64,000 bases of DNA from Pseudomonadota bacterium (lineage in GTDB: Bacteria; Pseudomonadota; Alphaproteobacteria; G022571365): NCBI GenBank assembly GCA_022571365.1, contig JACZXZ010000002.1, forward strand, positions 14,402 to 78,401, in the 5' to 3' direction. Below the pieces are notes generated by a model. That model was not told the origin of the DNA and ran no database searches. It worked only from the letters and a program-made list of their open reading frames with translations. This document shows positions 4,393-54,988 of this stretch, in pieces; position 1 is the first letter of the stretch; every line of letters starts with the position of its first letter. Both the position numbers and the translations under genes were made by a program.

Positions 4393-5079
4393 ATGTTCGA
4401 CCTCGGTTGGTCCGAAATGATGATCATCGCCACGGTGGTGCTGATCATCTTCGGACCGAAGGACCTGCCGAAGGTCCTCAAGACCGCGACCTTTTGGATG
4501 CGCAAGGGCCGGGCGCTCGCCAAGGAGTTCCGGAACGGTCTCGATGAAATAGTCCGGGAAGCCGAACTGGATGAGCTCAAGAAGGACCTCGAATCGGCGA
4601 CGCGCTACGACCTGAAGGGGGAGATGGAAAAAACCATCGACCCGACCGGCAGCCTCGTCAAAGCCCTCGATGCGCCGGACGAACTCACCAAGTCGAAGGC
4701 CGAACCCGCGGCGGCGGGCGACACCGAGGCCAAGCCCAAGGCCGAACCCGCGGCGGCGGGCGACACCGAGGCCAAGCCCAAGGCCGAACCCGCGGCAGGG
4801 GACGACACCGAGGCCAAGCCCAAGGCCGAACCCGCGGCGGCGGGCGACACCGCGGCCAAGCCCAAGGCCGAACCCGCGGCGGCGGGCGACACCGCGGCCA
4901 AGCCCAAGGCCGAACCCGCGGCGGCGGGCGACACCGCGGCCAAGCCCAAGGCCGAACCCGCGGCGGCGGGCGACACCGCGGCCAAGCCCAAGGCCGAACC
5001 CGCGGCGGGGGGCACATCGAGGCCCAGACGAGGGAAGGCGAATCGAAGGCCGGCGGTGGAAAACGCGAGGAGCCGCTAA
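4393..5079 (+). CDS. tatB: Twin-arginine translocase subunit TatB with repetitive C-terminal extension
   Basis: MFDLGWSEMMIIATVVLIIFGPKDLPKVLKT... TatB-type N-terminus; C-terminal half is 7 tandem copies of KAEPAAAGDT(E/A)AKP. Confidence 0.8.
   Translation: MFDLGWSEMMIIATVVLIIFGPKDLPKVLKTATFWMRKGRALAKEFRNGLDEIVREAELDELKKDLESATRYDLKGEMEKTIDPTGSLVKALDAPDELTKSKAEPAAAGDTEAKPKAEPAAAGDTEAKPKAEPAAGDDTEAKPKAEPAAAGDTAAKPKAEPAAAGDTAAKPKAEPAAAGDTAAKPKAEPAAAGDTAAKPKAEPAAGGTSRPRRGKANRRPAVENARSR
4696..5010 (+). repeat. 42-bp tandem repeat, about 7.5 copies, inside tatB coding sequence
   Basis: AAGGCCGAACCCGCGGCGGCGGGCGACACCG(A/C)GGCCAAGCCC repeated head-to-tail; copies 1-3 carry GAG, copies 4-7 GCG, copy 3 carries AGDD variant. 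Confidence 0.9.
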
Positions 5080-20676: not shown

Positions 20677-23598
20677 TTGACCACGCCGCCCGCACCGCCT
20701 GAATACGACATCACGATCGTGAGCCTCGAGGAGGAGATGAAGCACTCCTACCTCGACTACGCCATGAGCGTGATCGTGGCCCGCGCGCTGCCCGACGTGC
20801 GCGACGGGCTGAAGCCGGTCCACCGCCGCATCCTTTACGCCATGAAGGAGGGCGGCTACGACCGGGCCAAGCCGTTCCGCAAGTCGGCGCGCATCGTCGG
20901 CGACGTCATGGGCAAGTACCACCCCCACGGCGACGCCGCCATCTACGACGCCATGGTGCGCATGGCCCAGGATTTCTCCATGCGGCTCATGCTCATCGAA
21001 GGGCAGGGCAATTTCGGCTCCATGGACGGCGACCCGCCGGCCGCCATGCGTTACACCGAGGCGCGGCTCGCCCGCTCGGCCGAGGCGATTCTCGAGGATT
21101 TCGACAAGGGCACGGTCGACTTCAAGCCCAGTTACGACGGCAACGCCCAAGAGCCCGCCGTGCTGCCGGCCCGGTTTCCCAACCTGCTGGTCAACGGCGC
21201 CGGCGGTATCGCCGTCGGCATGGCGACCAACATCCCGACCCACAACCTGGGCGAGGTGATCGACGCCTGCTGTGCCTACGTGGACAATCCTGAGATCACC
21301 ATCGACGAGCTGATGGAGCACCTGCCGGGGCCGGACTTCCCGACCGCCGGCATCATACTCGGCAGAACGGGCATCCACGAAGCGTATCACACCGGTCGTG
21401 GCTCCATCGTCATGCGCGGACGCGCCGAAATCGAGGAGATCCGCAAGGATCGCCAGGCCATCGTCATCACCGAGATCCCGTATCAGGTCAACAAGTCGCG
21501 GATGGTCGAGCGCATCGCCGAGCTGGTTAGGGATAAGACCATCGAGGGCATCGTCGATCTGCGCGACGAGTCCGATCGCCACGGCGTCCGCGTGGTGGTC
21601 GAGGTCAGGCGCGATATCATCCCCGAGGTGGTGTTGAACCAGCTCTACCGTTACACGCCACTGCAGACCAGCTTCGGCGTCAACATGCTGGCCTTGAACC
21701 GCGGCCAGCCGGAGATGATGAATCTCAAGGACATCATCGCCCTCTTTATCGACTTCCGCGAGCAGGTCATCACCCGGCGCACGATATTCGAACTCAACAA
21801 AGCGCGGGCGCGCTCCCACATCCTGCTCGGCCTCGCCATCGCCGTGATCAACCTGGATCCGGTGATCGCGCTGATCCGCAAGGCTTCCGATCCGGCGGCC
21901 GCGCGGGCCGCGCTCAGGAAGCCGCCGTGGCCGGCCGGCGAGATGGAGGCGCTGATCCGCATGATCGACGAGCCGGAACAGAGCCTTAAGGACGGCGCCT
22001 ACCGCCTGTCGGAAGAGCAGGCGAAGGCGATATTGGAGCTCAGGCTCCATCGCTTGACCGGGCTCGAGCGCGACAAGATCGTCGAGGACTTGAAGGCGCT
22101 CGTCGATCAGATCTCCGGATATCTCGAGATCCTCGGCTCCCGGGAGCGCCTTTTGGAGATCCTGCGCCGCGAGCTTCAGGAGATGAAGGAGGAATTCGCG
22201 ACCCCGCGCCGCACCCAGATCGAGGAGATCGAGTTCGAGCACGACATCGAGGACCTGATCCAGCGCGAGGAGATGGTCGTCACCGTCACGCACACCGGCT
22301 ACATCAAACGGGTGCCGCTGTCGACCTACCGGGCGCAGCGCCGCGGCGGCAAGGGCCGGGCCGGCATGGCCACCCGCGAGGAGGACTTCGTCAGCCAGGT
22401 CTTCGTCGTCAACACCCACACCCCGGTCCTGTTCTTCTCCTCGCGCGGCATCGTCTACAAGATGAAGGTCTACAGGCTGCCCTTGGGCGCCCCGCAGGCG
22501 CGCGGCAAGGCGCTGGTCAATCTGTTGCCGCTGGAGGAGGAAGAGACGATCACCACCCTGATGCCCATGCCCGAGGACGAGCAAAGCTGGGGCGAACTCC
22601 ACGTCATGTTCGCCACCTCGGCCGGCCATGTCCGGCGCAACAAGCTGTCGGATTTCGTAAACGTCATGGCCAAAGGCAAGATCGCCATGAAGCTCAAGAA
22701 CGGCGACCAGCTCGTCGGCGTTCAGACCTGCACCGAGGACGACGACGTGTTGTTCGCCACCGGCGGCGGCAAGTGCATCCGCTTTCCGGCCACCGACGTC
22801 CGGGTGTTCAGCGGCCGCTCCTCGATCGGCGTCAGGGGCATCAGACTAGCCTCGGGCGATAAGGTCATTTCGATGTCGATTCTCACCCACATCGCAGCCG
22901 ACCCGAAGGATCGGGAGGAATACCTGCAAGCAGTCAACGCCAAGCACCGGCTTGCCAGCACCGAGTACACCGGCAAATCGGAGGAGAAAGCCCGCGATGA
23001 GCAGCGCGCCGCGCGGCTTGACGAGCAAAATTTCGTCGAGATGGCCGAGCACGAGGAGTTCATCCTGACGGTTGCCGAGAATGGTTTCGGCAAGCGTACC
23101 TCGGGTTACGACTACCGGATCGCCCGGCGCGGCGGCAAAGGCATCGGCAGCATGGAGCTGGAGCGCGACGGGAACGCCGTGGTCGCGGCGTTTACTGTCA
23201 CCGACGACGATCAGATCATATTGATGACCGACGGCGGGCAGATCATTCGATGCCCGGTGAATGACATTCGCGTCGCGCGGCGCGCCACCAGGGGAGTCAC
23301 CGTGTTCAAGCTCGCGGAAGGCGAGAAGGTGGTGTCGGTGTCGCGCCTCGGTGACGTCGGCGTCGAAGGCGACGGAGAAGAAGCAGGCGACGGAGAAGAA
23401 GCAGGCGAGGGCGAAGAGGCGGCGGACGGAGCGGCGGAATCGGAGGCGACGACCGTGGAGGACGACGGCAAGGGGGATGGTGGAGCGACGGCATCGGAGG
23501 CGACGGCCGTGGAGGACGACGGCAAGGGGGATGGTGGAGCGGCGGAATCGGAGGCGACGGCCGTGGAGGACGACGGCAAGGGGGACGGAGAACAATGA
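20677..23598 (+). CDS. gyrA: DNA gyrase subunit A
   Basis: 973 aa; [36 protein letters not shown] region, active-site Tyr region (AAMRYTE), C-terminal beta-pinwheel repeats and acidic tail; TTG start at 20677. Confidence 0.97.
23380..23590 (+). repeat. Tandem repeats encoding the GyrA acidic C-terminal tail (18-bp x2 then ~60-bp x3)
   Basis: GGCGACGGAGAAGAAGCA x2; GGAGCG(A/G)CGG(C/A)ATCGGAGGCGACG(G/A)CCGTGGAGGACGACGGCAAGGGGGATGGT x3 giving [16 protein letters not shown] repeats. Confidence 0.85.
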
Positions 23599-48926: not shown

Positions 48927-49738
48927 CGCTGGTGGACAGCCACTGTCATCTCGATTTTCCGGATTTCGCGGGCGAGCTCGACGCGGTCATCGCCCGGGCC
49001 GCCGCCGCCGGTGTCGGCGTCATGGTGACGATCTGCACCAAATTGAGCGCCTTCGATCGGGTGCTCGCCATCGCCGAGACCCATGACAACGTCTATTGCT
49101 CGGTCGGGGTCCACCCGCACGAGGCGGCGGGCGAGGGGGTAGAGGAACCCGATCGCCTGATCGCGCTGGCACGTCATCCCAAGGTGGTCGGCATCGGCGA
49201 GACCGGACTCGACTACCACTACGAGCACAGCCCAAGGGAGGCCCAGCAGGAAAGCTTCCGAGCCCATATCGGCGCGGCGCGGGAGACGGGCCTGCCACTC
49301 ATTGTCCATACCCGCAAGGCCGATGAGGACACCGCCCGGATTCTTCGGGAGGAAACCGCGATCGGACCGTTTACAGGCCTCATACATTGCTTTAGCACAT
49401 CTAGAGAACTAGCTGAAATTGCTATGAAACTTGGATTCTACATCTCCCTTTCGGGGATCGTTACCTTCGAGAAAGCCGGCGATCTTCGGGCAATTGTCCA
49501 GAATCTGCCGCTCGAGAGGCTCCTGGTCGAGACCGACGCACCCTACCTGGCGCCGGCACCGATGCGGGGTAAGCGGAATGAACCCGCCTTCGTCGTCCAC
49601 ACGGCCGAGGCCGTCGCGGCGCTCAAAGGAATGGCGCCGGAGGCTTTTGCGCGGGCGACCAGCGATAACTTCTTCCGCCTGTTCCAGAAGGTCCAGACGC
49701 CAACGTCCGCGCGGCTTTCCGCAACGGCACGCGGGTAA
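48923..49738 (+). CDS. tatD: TatD family metal-dependent hydrolase
   Basis: VDSHCHLDF start, conserved His/Glu/Asp metal ligands (GVHPHEA; GETGLDYHY; HCFS; ETDAPYL). Confidence 0.9.
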   Translation: MTLVDSHCHLDFPDFAGELDAVIARAAAAGVGVMVTICTKLSAFDRVLAIAETHDNVYCSVGVHPHEAAGEGVEEPDRLIALARHPKVVGIGETGLDYHYEHSPREAQQESFRAHIGAARETGLPLIVHTRKADEDTARILREETAIGPFTGLIHCFSTSRELAEIAMKLGFYISLSGIVTFEKAGDLRAIVQNLPLERLLVETDAPYLAPAPMRGKRNEPAFVVHTAEAVAALKGMAPEAFARATSDNFFRLFQKVQTPTSARLSATARG

Positions 49739-50020
49739 CCATTGCGGGCCGCGAGGACGGCGAAGTAGCCACCGCCGCAGACCACCACAGCGCTTGGATA
49801 GGGACGGTTCGAGGGAACGGTTCGAGGGGCCGGATTCCTCGAACCCTTGGACAGAGGTCAAAACAACCCTTATTATTTACCATAATATACATTATGCGCT
49901 AAATTTATATGGCGGCATCGCCCGCCGGGCCAAGCGCCCTCTCGCCTTCCTCCCCGCTCCCTCTGTCCACCAATTTTCCCGGCCGATGGCACCGCTCACG
50001 GTGAAAGGTCTCGATTAACC

Positions 50021-50120
50021 GCTGAATCCCGTTGAATCCCGTTGAATCCCGCTGAATCCCGTTGAATCCCGCTGAATCCCGTTGAATCCCGCTGAATCCC
50101 GCTGAATTCTGCTGAATCTT
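50021..50120. repeat. 10-bp tandem repeat array (G[C/T]TGAATCCC), 8 perfect + 2 degenerate copies
   Basis: GCTGAATCCC GTTGAATCCC GTTGAATCCC GCTGAATCCC GTTGAATCCC GCTGAATCCC GTTGAATCCC GCTGAATCCC GCTGAATTCT GCTGAATCTT within an ~850-bp non-coding gap. Confidence 0.9.
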
Positions 50121-50595
50121 GCAACATCTCCCGGCTAGCTCCAGAGCATGGAGCGCCTGAGAGACCCCGAGCATGGCTGATCTTTGTCGTTCCGAGCCGA
50201 CAACGCATCGCTCCTCAAGGAGCGCGCTACGCCAGGGTATGTATAATAGGTTCCAATGGTCCAGGCCGCGGTGATGGCAGGCGCGGTGGACCGTCCACCG
50301 GATAACCCGGGTTCTCCTCCTGCCAGGGCGCCGAACACACCCGCCGCGGCCAACCGGAGCCCGTAGCAAGGCAAACATCGCCAAGCCGGGCTCTGCACCT
50401 GGTCTCGCGGCACGCTCTTGGACCGCTACGCGCCAGCGACGACCTAACCACCCCGGTGCCCGAGCCCGGCGGCACCCCAGAGCCCCGCCACGGCTACGCC
50501 AAGAGCCCCCAACAGTGCGGCAGCCGATGAGAATTTCGATATTGACGCCGTGGGCACGCGGTCACGGGCCCGGCGCCGGCGCGCGGGACCGAGCC

Positions 50596-51402
50596 TCAGT
50601 CGGCGGCGAACCTGTCCCGAAGCATCCGCCAACTCGCCTCATCAGGGGCAAGCAGGAAGTTGCCGGCGGTGAGCGTCGGCCGGTAGGGCGTGCCGTCGAG
50701 GCAAGCGTTGTAACCGCCGGCCTCGCCGTGAATCAAAGCGCCCGCGGCGTGATCCCAGGGCCAAAGCCGGGTGAACAGGCCGAAATGCGTCTCGCCGCGG
50801 GCCAGCGCCAGATATTCGTGGCCGACGCAGCGGCGGTAAATGGCGGCGCCGAGTCCCTTCTTGCGCTCGGCGAGGTCGGGCGTAATTCCAGGCCGGCCTG
50901 GGCGGGCATAGACGGCGCCCCGCATTTGCTCCGGCGCGGCGGCCGCGGCGACGTGCAGACGCCGCTTCCCAATCCAGACCCCCTCGCCTTGCGCGGCCAT
51001 CACCGTCTCGCCGCCGAGCGGATCGTGAATCCAGGCGGCCGCGGTGCGCCCGCGCACGACAAAGGCCACTATCATGGCGAACGGTGGCTTGCCGTCGGCG
51101 AAATTGGCCGTGCCGTCCAGGGGATCGATGATCCAGACGGGCGCTTTGCCCGCGAGATTGCCCAGGATCGTCGGGTCCTGATCGACCGCTTCCTCACCGA
51201 CCACCAACGACCCCGGGATGAGCTCCCGGAACGCGCGCGTCAGCCGCCGCTCGGCGGCCAGGTCGGCTACCGTGACCAGGTCGCCCGGCTGTTTCTCCCT
51301 CACCTCGCTCGCCGCGAGCCGCTTGAAGCGCGGCAGGATATCGACCGCGGCGGCCTCGCGGATCAACCGCTCGACCCTGTCCATATCGGGTGTCATAGGC
51401 AT
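50596..51402 (-). CDS. Inositol monophosphatase family protein
   Basis: WIIDPLDGTANF metal-binding motif and second Asp motif region; start at MPMTPDMDRV (ORF track extends through an upstream duplicated segment). Confidence 0.8.
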   Translation of the reverse strand: MPMTPDMDRVERLIREAAAVDILPRFKRLAASEVREKQPGDLVTVADLAAERRLTRAFRELIPGSLVVGEEAVDQDPTILGNLAGKAPVWIIDPLDGTANFADGKPPFAMIVAFVVRGRTAAAWIHDPLGGETVMAAQGEGVWIGKRRLHVAAAAAPEQMRGAVYARPGRPGITPDLAERKKGLGAAIYRRCVGHEYLALARGETHFGLFTRLWPWDHAAGALIHGEAGGYNACLDGTPYRPTLTAGNFLLAPDEASWRMLRDRFAAD

Positions 51403-51530
51403 GTTCGACGGTAGCACGGACGCTCGGAAGAAAAAGGGGCCGCGCGGATCAACCGCTCGACCCTGTCCATATCGGGTGTCATAGGCATGTTCGACGGTAG
51501 CACGGACGCTCGGAAGAAAAAGGGGCCGCG
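51359..51530. repeat. 86-bp perfect tandem duplication covering the IMPase start codon region and half of the groEL terminator
   Basis: CGGATCAACCGCTCGACCCTGTCCATATCGGGTGTCATAGGCATGTTCGACGGTAGCACGGACGCTCGGAAGAAAAAGGGGCCGCG present twice head-to-tail (51359-51444, 51445-51530). Confidence 0.9.
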
Positions 51531-51545
51531 TGGCACGCGGCCCCT
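51510..51545 (-). terminator. Rho-independent terminator of groESL
   Basis: 10-bp GC stem AGGGGCCGCG/CGCGGCCCCT with 5-nt loop, followed on the minus strand by TTTTTCTTCC; 27 bp past the groEL stop. Confidence 0.75.
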
Positions 51546-51571
51546 GAAAAACCAAGATTCGGTCGGGCCGG

Positions 51572-53212
<1,641 letters not shown>

Positions 53213-53500
53213 CTATTCGATAATACCGATAATGTCAGACTCTTTCATGATCACGAGGTCCTCTCCCTCGATTTTGACCTCGGTGCCCGACCACTTGCCG
53301 AACAGCACGCGGTCGCCCTTCTTGACGTCCAGGGGACGGAGCTTGCCGTCCTCGCCGAGCGTGCCCGCGCCGACGGCTTTCACCTTGCCCTCCATGGGCT
53401 TTTCCTTAGCGGTGTCGGGGATAATGATGCCTCCCGTGCTCTTTGCATCCTTCTCCAGGGGCTTGATCAGCACACGGTCATGTAGCGGTCTGAATTTCAT
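53213..53500 (-). CDS. groES: Co-chaperonin GroES
   Basis: 95 aa; [16 protein letters not shown] start, mobile loop, [13 protein letters not shown]. Confidence 0.97.
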
Positions 53501-53544
53501 TGAGGCACCTCCTTGGTTGTCGGCCTGAGCTCAAGTCCGGATTG

Positions 53545-53571
53545 TTAGCACTCCGGGGAAGTGAGTGCTGG
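53545..53571. promoter_or_regulatory. CIRCE (HrcA operator) inverted repeat in groES leader
   Basis: TTAGCACTC-CGGGGAAGT-GAGTGCTgg matches TTAGCACTC-N9-GAGTGCTAA except the last two bases. Confidence 0.75.
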
Positions 53572-53572
53572 C

Positions 53573-53601
53573 TATATAAGAGGTGCCTCTGGCCTTGTCA
53601 A
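53573..53601 (-). promoter_or_regulatory. Sigma-70-type promoter of groESL (TTGACA-N17-TATATA on minus strand) immediately upstream of CIRCE
   Basis: Reverse complement of 53573-53601 reads TTGACAaggccagaggcacctctTATATA. Confidence 0.5.
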
Positions 53602-53674
53602 CCGGGTTTGTCGGGCGAGATCTGAGCGGTCCCGGCAGCACCAGAGGCCTTGGTTTCAAAGAGAATCAGCGCGC

Positions 53675-54988
53675 TCAATGATACCGGTCCCGTGCCCGGT
53701 GTTCGAACCGGGCGATGTCGGCGGCATTGAGGCTGACTTTGAAATGTGCGAAGCCCGCGTCGTCGTGGCGGCTTAGCACCTCGCCACGGTCGTAGAGCCA
53801 GGCCATGGCTGCGCCGTCCGCCAGATCCACGGTGAGCTCGACGATTTGGCGAGATGCCCTGAGCCGTCCGTCGATCAGTGTCAGCAGCGTATCCAGGCCC
53901 TCGCCGGTGAGCGCCGAGGTGGGGACTGCGTGGCCGTTGCGCCGGGCCTGATTGTAGGCCCCCCGCTTCGCTTCGTCGTCGAGCAGATCGAGCTTGTTCA
54001 ACACTTCGATCAGGCCGCTGTTCACCGCGTCGCCCAGGCCAAGGTCGCGGAGCACCCTGTGGACATCCTCCTTCTGCTCCGCGCTATCGGGATGGGCGAT
54101 ATCGCGCACGTGAAGGATGACATCGGCCTGGCGAACTTCCTCTAATGTGGCTCGGAACGCCGCCACCAAGTCGGTCGGCAGATCGGAGATGAAGCCCACT
54201 GTGTCGGACAGGATGACCGGGTGGCCCGAGGGCAGCTTGAGGACGCGCATGGTCGGATCGAGCGTCGCGAACATGAGATTCTTGGCATCCAGCTCGGCCT
54301 TGGTGAGGCGATTGAACAGGGTTGATTTGCCAGCGTTGGTGTAGCCGACCAGTGAGATGATCGAATACGGCATCCGCCGGCGCGCGTGGCGGTGGAGCCC
54401 GCGGGTCCGCTTGACCCCCTCCAGCTCACGCTTCAGCCGCGCGATTCGCTCACCGATGAGCCTGCGGTCCACTTCGATCTGAGTCTCGCCCGGCCCGCCG
54501 ATGAAGCCATAGCCGCCGCGTTGCCGTTCCAGGTGGGTCCAGCTCCGTACCAGGCGGCTTCGTTGATAGGACAGGTGCGCCAGCTCGACCTGCAGGCTGC
54601 CCTCCCGCGTGCGCGCCCGCTCGCCGAAGATTTCGAAGATCAAGCCGGTGCGGTCGATCACCTTGCAGTCCCAGGCGCGCTCAAGGTTACGCTGCTGAAC
54701 GGGCGTGAGGCCGGCATCCACGATCGCCACTTCCACCCTTTTCGCCTTGACCAAGGCGGCGAGGGTTTCCACCACGCCGGCGGCGAACAGAGTCGCCGGG
54801 CGCGGCCGGTTCACCCGGATCGTGTCCGTGTGGACAACCGTGAGATCGATGGCATGGGCAAGGCCGATTGCCTCCTCCAGCCGCGCCTCGGGTGTCCGTC
54901 CGGCCTCTCTCGCCGACTTGAGAACAGGATGCAGGACTACCGCCCGGCCTGTCGATGGTGCCTCGCGAGAAGGGAGGTTGCGCGTCAA
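53675..54988 (-). CDS. hflX: GTPase HflX
   Basis: N-terminal HflX domain, G1 GYTNAGKSTLFN, G3/G4 motifs; directly downstream of hfq. Confidence 0.92.
   Translation of the reverse strand: MTRNLPSREAPSTGRAVVLHPVLKSAREAGRTPEARLEEAIGLAHAIDLTVVHTDTIRVNRPRPATLFAAGVVETLAALVKAKRVEVAIVDAGLTPVQQRNLERAWDCKVIDRTGLIFEIFGERARTREGSLQVELAHLSYQRSRLVRSWTHLERQRGGYGFIGGPGETQIEVDRRLIGERIARLKRELEGVKRTRGLHRHARRRMPYSIISLVGYTNAGKSTLFNRLTKAELDAKNLMFATLDPTMRVLKLPSGHPVILSDTVGFISDLPTDLVAAFRATLEEVRQADVILHVRDIAHPDSAEQKEDVHRVLRDLGLGDAVNSGLIEVLNKLDLLDDEAKRGAYNQARRNGHAVPTSALTGEGLDTLLTLIDGRLRASRQIVELTVDLADGAAMAWLYDRGEVLSRHDDAGFAHFKVSLNAADIARFEHRARDRYH

Follow-up and report, generated by a model that had tools for sequence, protein, structure and literature searches.

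An 86-bp tandem duplication, probably a copy-number polymorphism, joins a terminator-like hairpin and a short upstream ORF to an inositol-monophosphatase-family gene behind groESL in an uncultured alphaproteobacterium

Microhomology-mediated events are reported to be the dominant class of tandem duplication in bacteria, and loci classed as 'highly variable' are found at one, two or three copies among isolates (bioRxiv 10.64898/2026.02.28.708716). The MIRU repeats of mycobacteria are tandem units of tens of base pairs that lie at a gene start, differ in copy number among strains and contain a small ORF with a -4 stop overlap; this -4 nt overlap supports translational coupling, which has been proposed to allow the placement of MIRUs at start codons while hardly affecting the gene (PMC12548453). 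The locus described here is an 86-bp direct repeat between groEL and a gene of the inositol monophosphatase (IMPase) family, in a 64-kb stretch of DNA that we refer to throughout as the window. In nothing essential does it differ from a microhomology-mediated tandem duplication: the additional copy lies head-to-tail, relatives have a single copy, the ends share a short homology (2 bp exact, 6/7 imperfect), and one and two copies (possibly three) occur within the species. What is particular here is that one breakpoint falls at the stem-loop boundary of a terminator and that a terminator-like hairpin is regenerated at the junction. With MIRUs the locus shares tandem units at a gene start, the small ORF with its -4 stop overlap and the variable copy number; however, MIRUs form a dispersed family at many loci, whereas the 86-bp unit is unique and locally derived. 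Two kinds of regulatory element also invite comparison. As in tandem or translation-suppressed intragenic terminators, two GC hairpins with U-tracts follow groEL, 86 nt apart, and the second lies inside an ORF, but this second hairpin is a chimera made by the duplication and is terminator-like by sequence. As in leader-peptide attenuators of the trp and his type, a short ORF upstream of the gene overlaps a terminator hairpin; in contrast to these, the arrangement has neither an antiterminator pairing nor a regulatory codon run that we could find, and it is present in some strains and absent from relatives, so the likeness is one of layout and not of membership. The event is of an already understood kind, an ordinary structural polymorphism of the replication-slippage type with an instructive junction.

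The initial annotation of this DNA described a perfect 86-bp tandem duplication whose unit contains the start of IMPase with its first 14 codons, the T-tract and one arm of the terminator. Our analysis bears this out, the 14 codons being those that begin at the first ATG. The two copies (Table 1) are directly adjacent, head-to-tail and identical at 86 of 86 positions, and TRF returned a period of 86 with 2.1 copies and a score of 351. The exact period-86 run extends over 174 bp (51357-51530), so that the limits of the unit can be shifted by 2 bp (CG). Read in the order of transcription, the unit opens with the 3′ arm of T1, the terminator of groEL, and continues through the T-tract and a 25-nt leader to ATG-CCT-ATG and another 12 codons; its right boundary (51530/51531) coincides with the last stem pair of T1, adjoining the hairpin loop. 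The chance origin of an 86-bp identity is negligible. When 20-mers sampled across the unit were searched on both strands of the 64 kb, they matched solely in its two copies, and the window holds no other repeat of period 86. Two tandem arrays elsewhere in the window, at 4688-5024 (42 bp x 8, 95% matches) and 23428-23585 (54 bp x 2.9, 95% matches), have in-frame lengths and presumably encode repeat-containing proteins.

Table 1. Features of the groESL-IMPase region, in window coordinates
Feature	Position	Strand	Basis or remark
Inositol-monophosphatase-family gene, 266 aa from second ATG	50596..51396	-	PF00459, E 1.9e-39
Left microhomology GGCCTCG	51352..51358	.	6/7 match to GGCCGCG ending each copy; last 2 bp (CG) exact
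Proximal copy of 86-bp unit, runs on into IMPase gene body	51359..51444	-	sequence identity; one such unit in single-copy contigs L002, L006, L066, L067, L076
uORF created by the duplication, 31 codons, MPMTPDMDRVERLIRAAPFSSERPCYRRTCL and stop	51393..51488	-	translation
T2, junction-born hairpin and U-tract	51428..51463	-	RNA fold; terminator scan
Distal (groEL-side) copy of 86-bp unit	51445..51530	-	identity to 51359-51444; TRF period 86
T1, original groEL intrinsic terminator: 11-bp GC stem, 3-nt loop, TTTTTCTT	51513..51545	-	terminator scan; RNA fold
groEL	51572..53200	-	PF00118
groES	53213..53500	-	PF00166
groESL control region: TTGACA (53601-53596), 17-nt spacer, TATATA (53578-53573), then CIRCE-like inverted repeat (53571-53545)	53545..53601	-	promoter read from sequence; CIRCE by pattern match

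The gene downstream of the repeat belongs to the IMPase family (136 bits against PF00459, for which the cut-off is 27), with scores below the NCBIfam cut-offs for the subfamilies HisN, CysQ and SuhB. An in-frame ATG at 51402 lies 6 nt upstream of the start given in Table 1. The N-terminus read from the second ATG, MTPDMDRV, aligns with MHPDPDRV and MNPDLDRV in relatives (pattern M-x-P-D-x-D-R-V), which points to the second ATG at 51396 as the true start; gene callers pick this same start on all related contigs. A 319-aa ORF beginning at TTG 51555 reads the two copies of the unit in different frames. That the N-terminal extension of this ORF is not real, 86 not being a multiple of 3, had been pointed out before and holds, so that for annotation the long ORF predicted over the repeat should be treated as spurious, with the second ATG as the start. 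Upstream, the CIRCE-like repeat that precedes groESL has 2 mismatches to the consensus, with 0.01 such matches expected by chance. CIRCE is the operator of HrcA, and the near-consensus promoter together with this repeat marks groESL as a typical heat-shock operon. A consensus-only scan, which owing to a rule on the last base also missed the TTGACA-N17-TATATA promoter of groESL, returned no sigma-70-like promoter in 51200-51700, between groEL and IMPase or at the junction; on the strength of this empty scan in and around the unit, a promoter created by the junction was rejected. A search of Rfam with 49500-54200 gave a single sub-threshold match, to ncS54 on the terminator (24 bits, gathering score 43), which we took as a generic hairpin match.

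A scan of GTDB species representatives with the IMPase protein returned relatives of at most 51% identity; the representatives do not include this species, and the relatives' loci were used for layout and for placing the start codon. In all six distant relatives compared (76% groEL identity, ~50% IMPase identity) the groEL-terminator-IMPase layout is kept, the groEL stop being followed by a GC hairpin and T-tract equivalent to T1, ~27 nt and then the ATG, and the unit is present in a single copy. Because these outgroups are all single-copy, the two-copy state is derived. Contigs of the species itself were found in metagenomes by exact-protein look-up of groEL, groES, IMPase and tatD; they are more than 99% identical, with at most 26 differences over 3.4 kb, and ten are informative. 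Two copies are present in L001 (ZHOU22-1, SAMN16252676), in L003 (ERZ27267460, contig name k141_...) and in L075 (ZHOU22-1, SAMN16252678), and in the last two a SNP tells the copies apart (L003, distal ATGAAC and proximal ATGGAC; L075, distal ATGCCT and proximal ATGTCT). A single copy is found in L002, L006/L065, L066, L067 and L076, from five samples. L004 has at least 2.6 copies, all ATGTCT, up to the contig end, a count that may stem from the way the assembler walked a loop. L070 ends precisely at GATCCGCG, where the one-copy and two-copy paths diverge, and L005 ends at the C/T SNP of the leader. The one contig found to encode exactly the IMPase protein of the window is single-copy. The ZHOU22-1 study alone contributes contigs with 2, 2 and 1 copies and one that ends where the two paths branch. 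For contigs built with k<86 (probably those named 'scaffold_') a count of two strictly means at least two. A highly variable tandem-duplication locus, or VNTR, would show three or more copy-number states in one species; here the one- and two-copy states are firm, and the single candidate for a higher state, L004, runs into its contig end. A run that contains this species, SRR12068625, is labelled marine sediment in a published table. In L065 (2187-3326) and L073 (1490-2629) hflX is called with a later start, at 379 aa instead of 437 aa, which could be a difference in the start region or a frameshift in those strains.

From the identity of the two copies the initial annotation had concluded that the duplication is recent. 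It is derived and, compared with the species, young, yet it is a segregating polymorphism rather than a new event private to this genome: the two-copy allele occurs in at least three other independent samples and has diversified there, as seen in the SNPs of L003 and L075 and in different alleles of the terminator loop. Taken as one joint reading, we consider it quite likely that the duplication is genuine and derived, that it passed from one copy to two by a microhomology-mediated tandem duplication, and that it segregates as a copy-number polymorphism in natural populations of this uncultured alphaproteobacterium.

What the duplication does to the sequence between the two genes is more than to add half a terminator, as had been supposed, since the junction rebuilds a whole hairpin and U-tract. 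This element, T2, reads GGGUCG-A-GCGG/UUGAU/CCGC-G-CGGCCC, followed by C and UUUUUCUU, and has an interrupted stem of 10 bp. Its left arm and loop come from the 5′ coding sequence of IMPase in the distal copy (codons ~6-12), and the proximal copy, with its duplicated terminator arm, supplies the right arm and TTTTTCTT. The predicted fold of T2 has an energy of -19.1 kcal/mol (z -2.6, a value matched by 1 of 200 shuffled sequences), compared with -23.3 kcal/mol (z -4.7) for T1; T2 is retained in the MFE structure of the whole 246-nt region, and the terminator scan flags it as terminator-like. In its native context the left arm folds no better than shuffles (z +0.3), and T2 is therefore a product of the junction. 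In sequence T2 is built like an intrinsic terminator, with a GC-rich stem-loop and, directly behind it on the transcribed strand, a U-rich tract; it is a second terminator-like element after groEL. The out-of-frame start context noted upstream of the gene in the initial annotation is also present, and can be specified further: the distal ATG (51488) opens a uORF (Table 1) that would be translated from the same leader as the real gene and runs through T2, and its TGA (51395-51393) overlaps the IMPase ATG (51396-51394) as ATGA. A -4 overlap of this kind is the classical geometry for coupling by termination and reinitiation.

The T-tract and the ATG of IMPase are only about 33 nt apart, a tight layout that relatives conserve. 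Together with the empty promoter scan between groEL and IMPase, this short gap makes it probable that at least part of the transcription of IMPase comes from the CIRCE-controlled groESL through T1, although a promoter of the non-sigma-70 type inside the unit would change the predicted effect. On the two-copy allele, read-through transcripts from groESL would meet T2 as a second terminator. Ribosomes translating the uORF should in turn suppress T2 by hindering formation of its hairpin, the -4 overlap would allow reinitiation at the IMPase ATG, and the proximal copy would keep the native IMPase leader intact. The net effect on IMPase output is likely to be small or modest; the output may fall somewhat and come to depend more on translation. 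A small net effect would explain how the two-copy allele persists at intermediate frequency without decay.

As to how the second copy arose, the join runs from ...GGTTGATCCGCG (IMPase codon 14, counted from the first ATG) to CGGCCCCTTTTT in the 3′ arm of T1, with 2 bp of exact microhomology within CG[C/A]GGCC. The defining features of a microhomology-mediated tandem duplication, an ancestral single copy and ends that share at least 1 bp (the threshold taken from bioRxiv 10.64898/2026.02.28.708716), are both present. The duplication would then have formed by replication slippage or template switching between CGCGGCC in the 3′ arm of T1 and CGAGGCC at IMPase codons 13-15 (from the first ATG). 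The two breakpoint regions share sequence similarity, with AGGG... left arms and CG[C/A]GGCC right arms. The idea that the breakpoints lie in two equivalent pre-existing hairpins was rejected, as the 5′ hairpin of IMPase in its native context does not outscore shuffled sequence, whether folded as RNA (z +0.3) or as DNA (z +0.65).

Other sequence polymorphisms were seen at and near this locus. The loop of T1 (51531-51535), in transcript sense, reads TGCCA in the window; L066 and L075 have its exact reverse complement, TGGCA, and the remaining contigs have TGCCG. The pattern resembles an inversion of the hairpin loop combined with a SNP, and two adjacent substitutions are also possible. Replacement of a loop by its reverse complement is a classic signature of intramolecular template switching in a hairpin. 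The T1 loop thus resembles known cases of quasipalindrome template switching, and it sits at the hairpin that holds the duplication breakpoint, but the likeness concerns the loop and not the duplication itself. IMPase and tatD are convergent, and the 857-bp spacer that separates them contains a 10-bp array, CCGCTGAATC, at 50019-50118 (10 copies, 90% matches), whose copy number ranges from ~3 to ~13 among the conspecific contigs, several contigs or scaffolds breaking or carrying N gaps there. A 13-bp direct repeat (CCCTCGAACCGTT-like) at 49802-49828 occurs twice in the window, three times in L076 and four times in L006, and a block of ~245 bp (~50205-50451, in the same spacer) forms an indel polymorphism, present in the window, L006, L066, L077 and L081 and absent from L001 and L076. 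The IMPase-tatD stretch is generally prone to slippage-type events, and such further polymorphisms in the neighbouring spacer fit a mutation-driven, near-neutral origin of the duplication. Between the convergent genes there is also a strongly AT-rich, perfectly conserved island (49856-49912; CCATATAAATTTAGCGCATAATGTATATTATGGTAAATAATAAGG...) in a genome of 66% GC; it could be a promoter or a small-RNA gene, and had no Rfam match at E<=1.

The repeat could in principle have been produced by the assembler from a genome that is truly single-copy, through an untrimmed join of contigs overlapping by k-1 = 86 or a mis-walked de Bruijn loop, a scenario that would have overturned the initial annotation and that we regard as very improbable. 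The length of the perfect duplication could indeed equal k-1 for k=87, and the breaks of L004, L005 and L070 inside or at the edge of the repeat indicate that assemblers struggle here. However, three further samples, drawn from at least two studies and each assembled independently, have the same junction, a junction k-mer is impossible from a purely single-copy genome, and period 86 occurs nowhere else in the 64 kb. L003 is moreover a MEGAHIT-style contig with k=141, a length at which a repeat of 86 bp forms no loop; since k=141 resolves the two-copy repeat, and since copy-specific SNPs are present in both L003 and L075, an artefact is essentially excluded. That a mobile element or dispersed repeat of the REP, MITE or MIRU-like kind was inserted at the IMPase start strikes us as more improbable still. 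An extra unit at a start codon with an ORF coupled at -4 spacing is what MIRUs show (PMC12548453), but a dispersed repeat has copies at unrelated loci, whereas the 86-bp unit is local sequence repeated at its sole locus in the window, with no further copy on either strand; a JGI metagenome scan with a 28-nt core of the unit gave 0 matches, and the single-copy allele already holds the whole unit in place. A recurrent hotspot, with repeated origins of the duplication at identical breakpoints, is a more serious contender, though we find it doubtful. The leader SNP ATGCCT/ATGTCT divides the one-copy alleles (T in L002; C in L006, L066, L067 and L076) and appears in the multi-copy alleles in all combinations, C/C in the window, L001 and L003, C/T in L075 and T/T/T in L004; the T1 loop has undergone a change of the template-switch type (TGCCA versus its inverse TGGCA); and active duplication loci are reported to recur (bioRxiv 10.64898/2026.02.28.708716). 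Against this, ordinary or unequal recombination of a two-copy C allele with a one-copy T allele can yield both C/T and T/T, and the contigs may be mixtures of strains. The window, L001, L003 and L004 also have a nearly identical groEL haplotype in common, with 0-1 differences among them and 3-6 differences to the one-copy contigs, while L075, at 3 differences from this multi-copy haplotype, leaves room for recurrence. Such sharing favours a single origin followed by recombination or conversion, an argument weakened in that metagenome consensus contigs can be strain mosaics; SNPs in the body of IMPase are too few to resolve the origin of the alleles.

The remaining question is whether selection has a part in maintaining the alleles, as intermediate frequency across several studies could also reflect selection rather than neutrality. 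Each unit might be a cassette of a terminator and a translated leader, whose copy number (1, 2, 3 or more) tunes the insulation of IMPase from heat-shock read-through out of groESL, making the locus a nascent attenuator or a contingency-like locus. Several observations agree with such a selected module: a full hairpin and U-tract is rebuilt at the junction, an ATGA overlap couples the uORF, which runs across T2, to the IMPase start, groESL is CIRCE-controlled, both alleles occur in several samples and even within one study (ZHOU22-1), and the two-copy allele is old enough to have diversified while T2 and the uORF start were kept. We nevertheless judge it unlikely. The MFE and centroid folds contain no competing antiterminator, and the uORF peptide contains no regulatory codon run; the hairpin is largely explained by the sequence similarity that gave the microhomology; the other length polymorphisms of the adjacent spacer look like plain slippage; relatives do without the duplication; and the sample of ten informative contigs is small. 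The stronger form of the proposal, in which the unit is a stackable cassette of terminator and coupled leader ORF and the one-, two- and three-copy alleles are kept because copy number sets how much groESL read-through reaches IMPase, seems to us quite unlikely; were it true, this would be a leader-peptide-type attenuator caught at birth, from a single slippage event.

Under the preferred reading, that of a microhomology-mediated duplication segregating as a copy-number polymorphism, the interest of the locus lies in its junction. One slippage event creates three things here, a terminator-like hairpin, a uORF and a translationally coupled start, and the unduplicated allele in the same populations provides a natural control. 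If the alleles differ in IMPase output, the locus would be a simple model of how regulatory leaders are born de novo; if their outputs are equal, it would show that a duplication at a gene start can compensate for itself and so persist.
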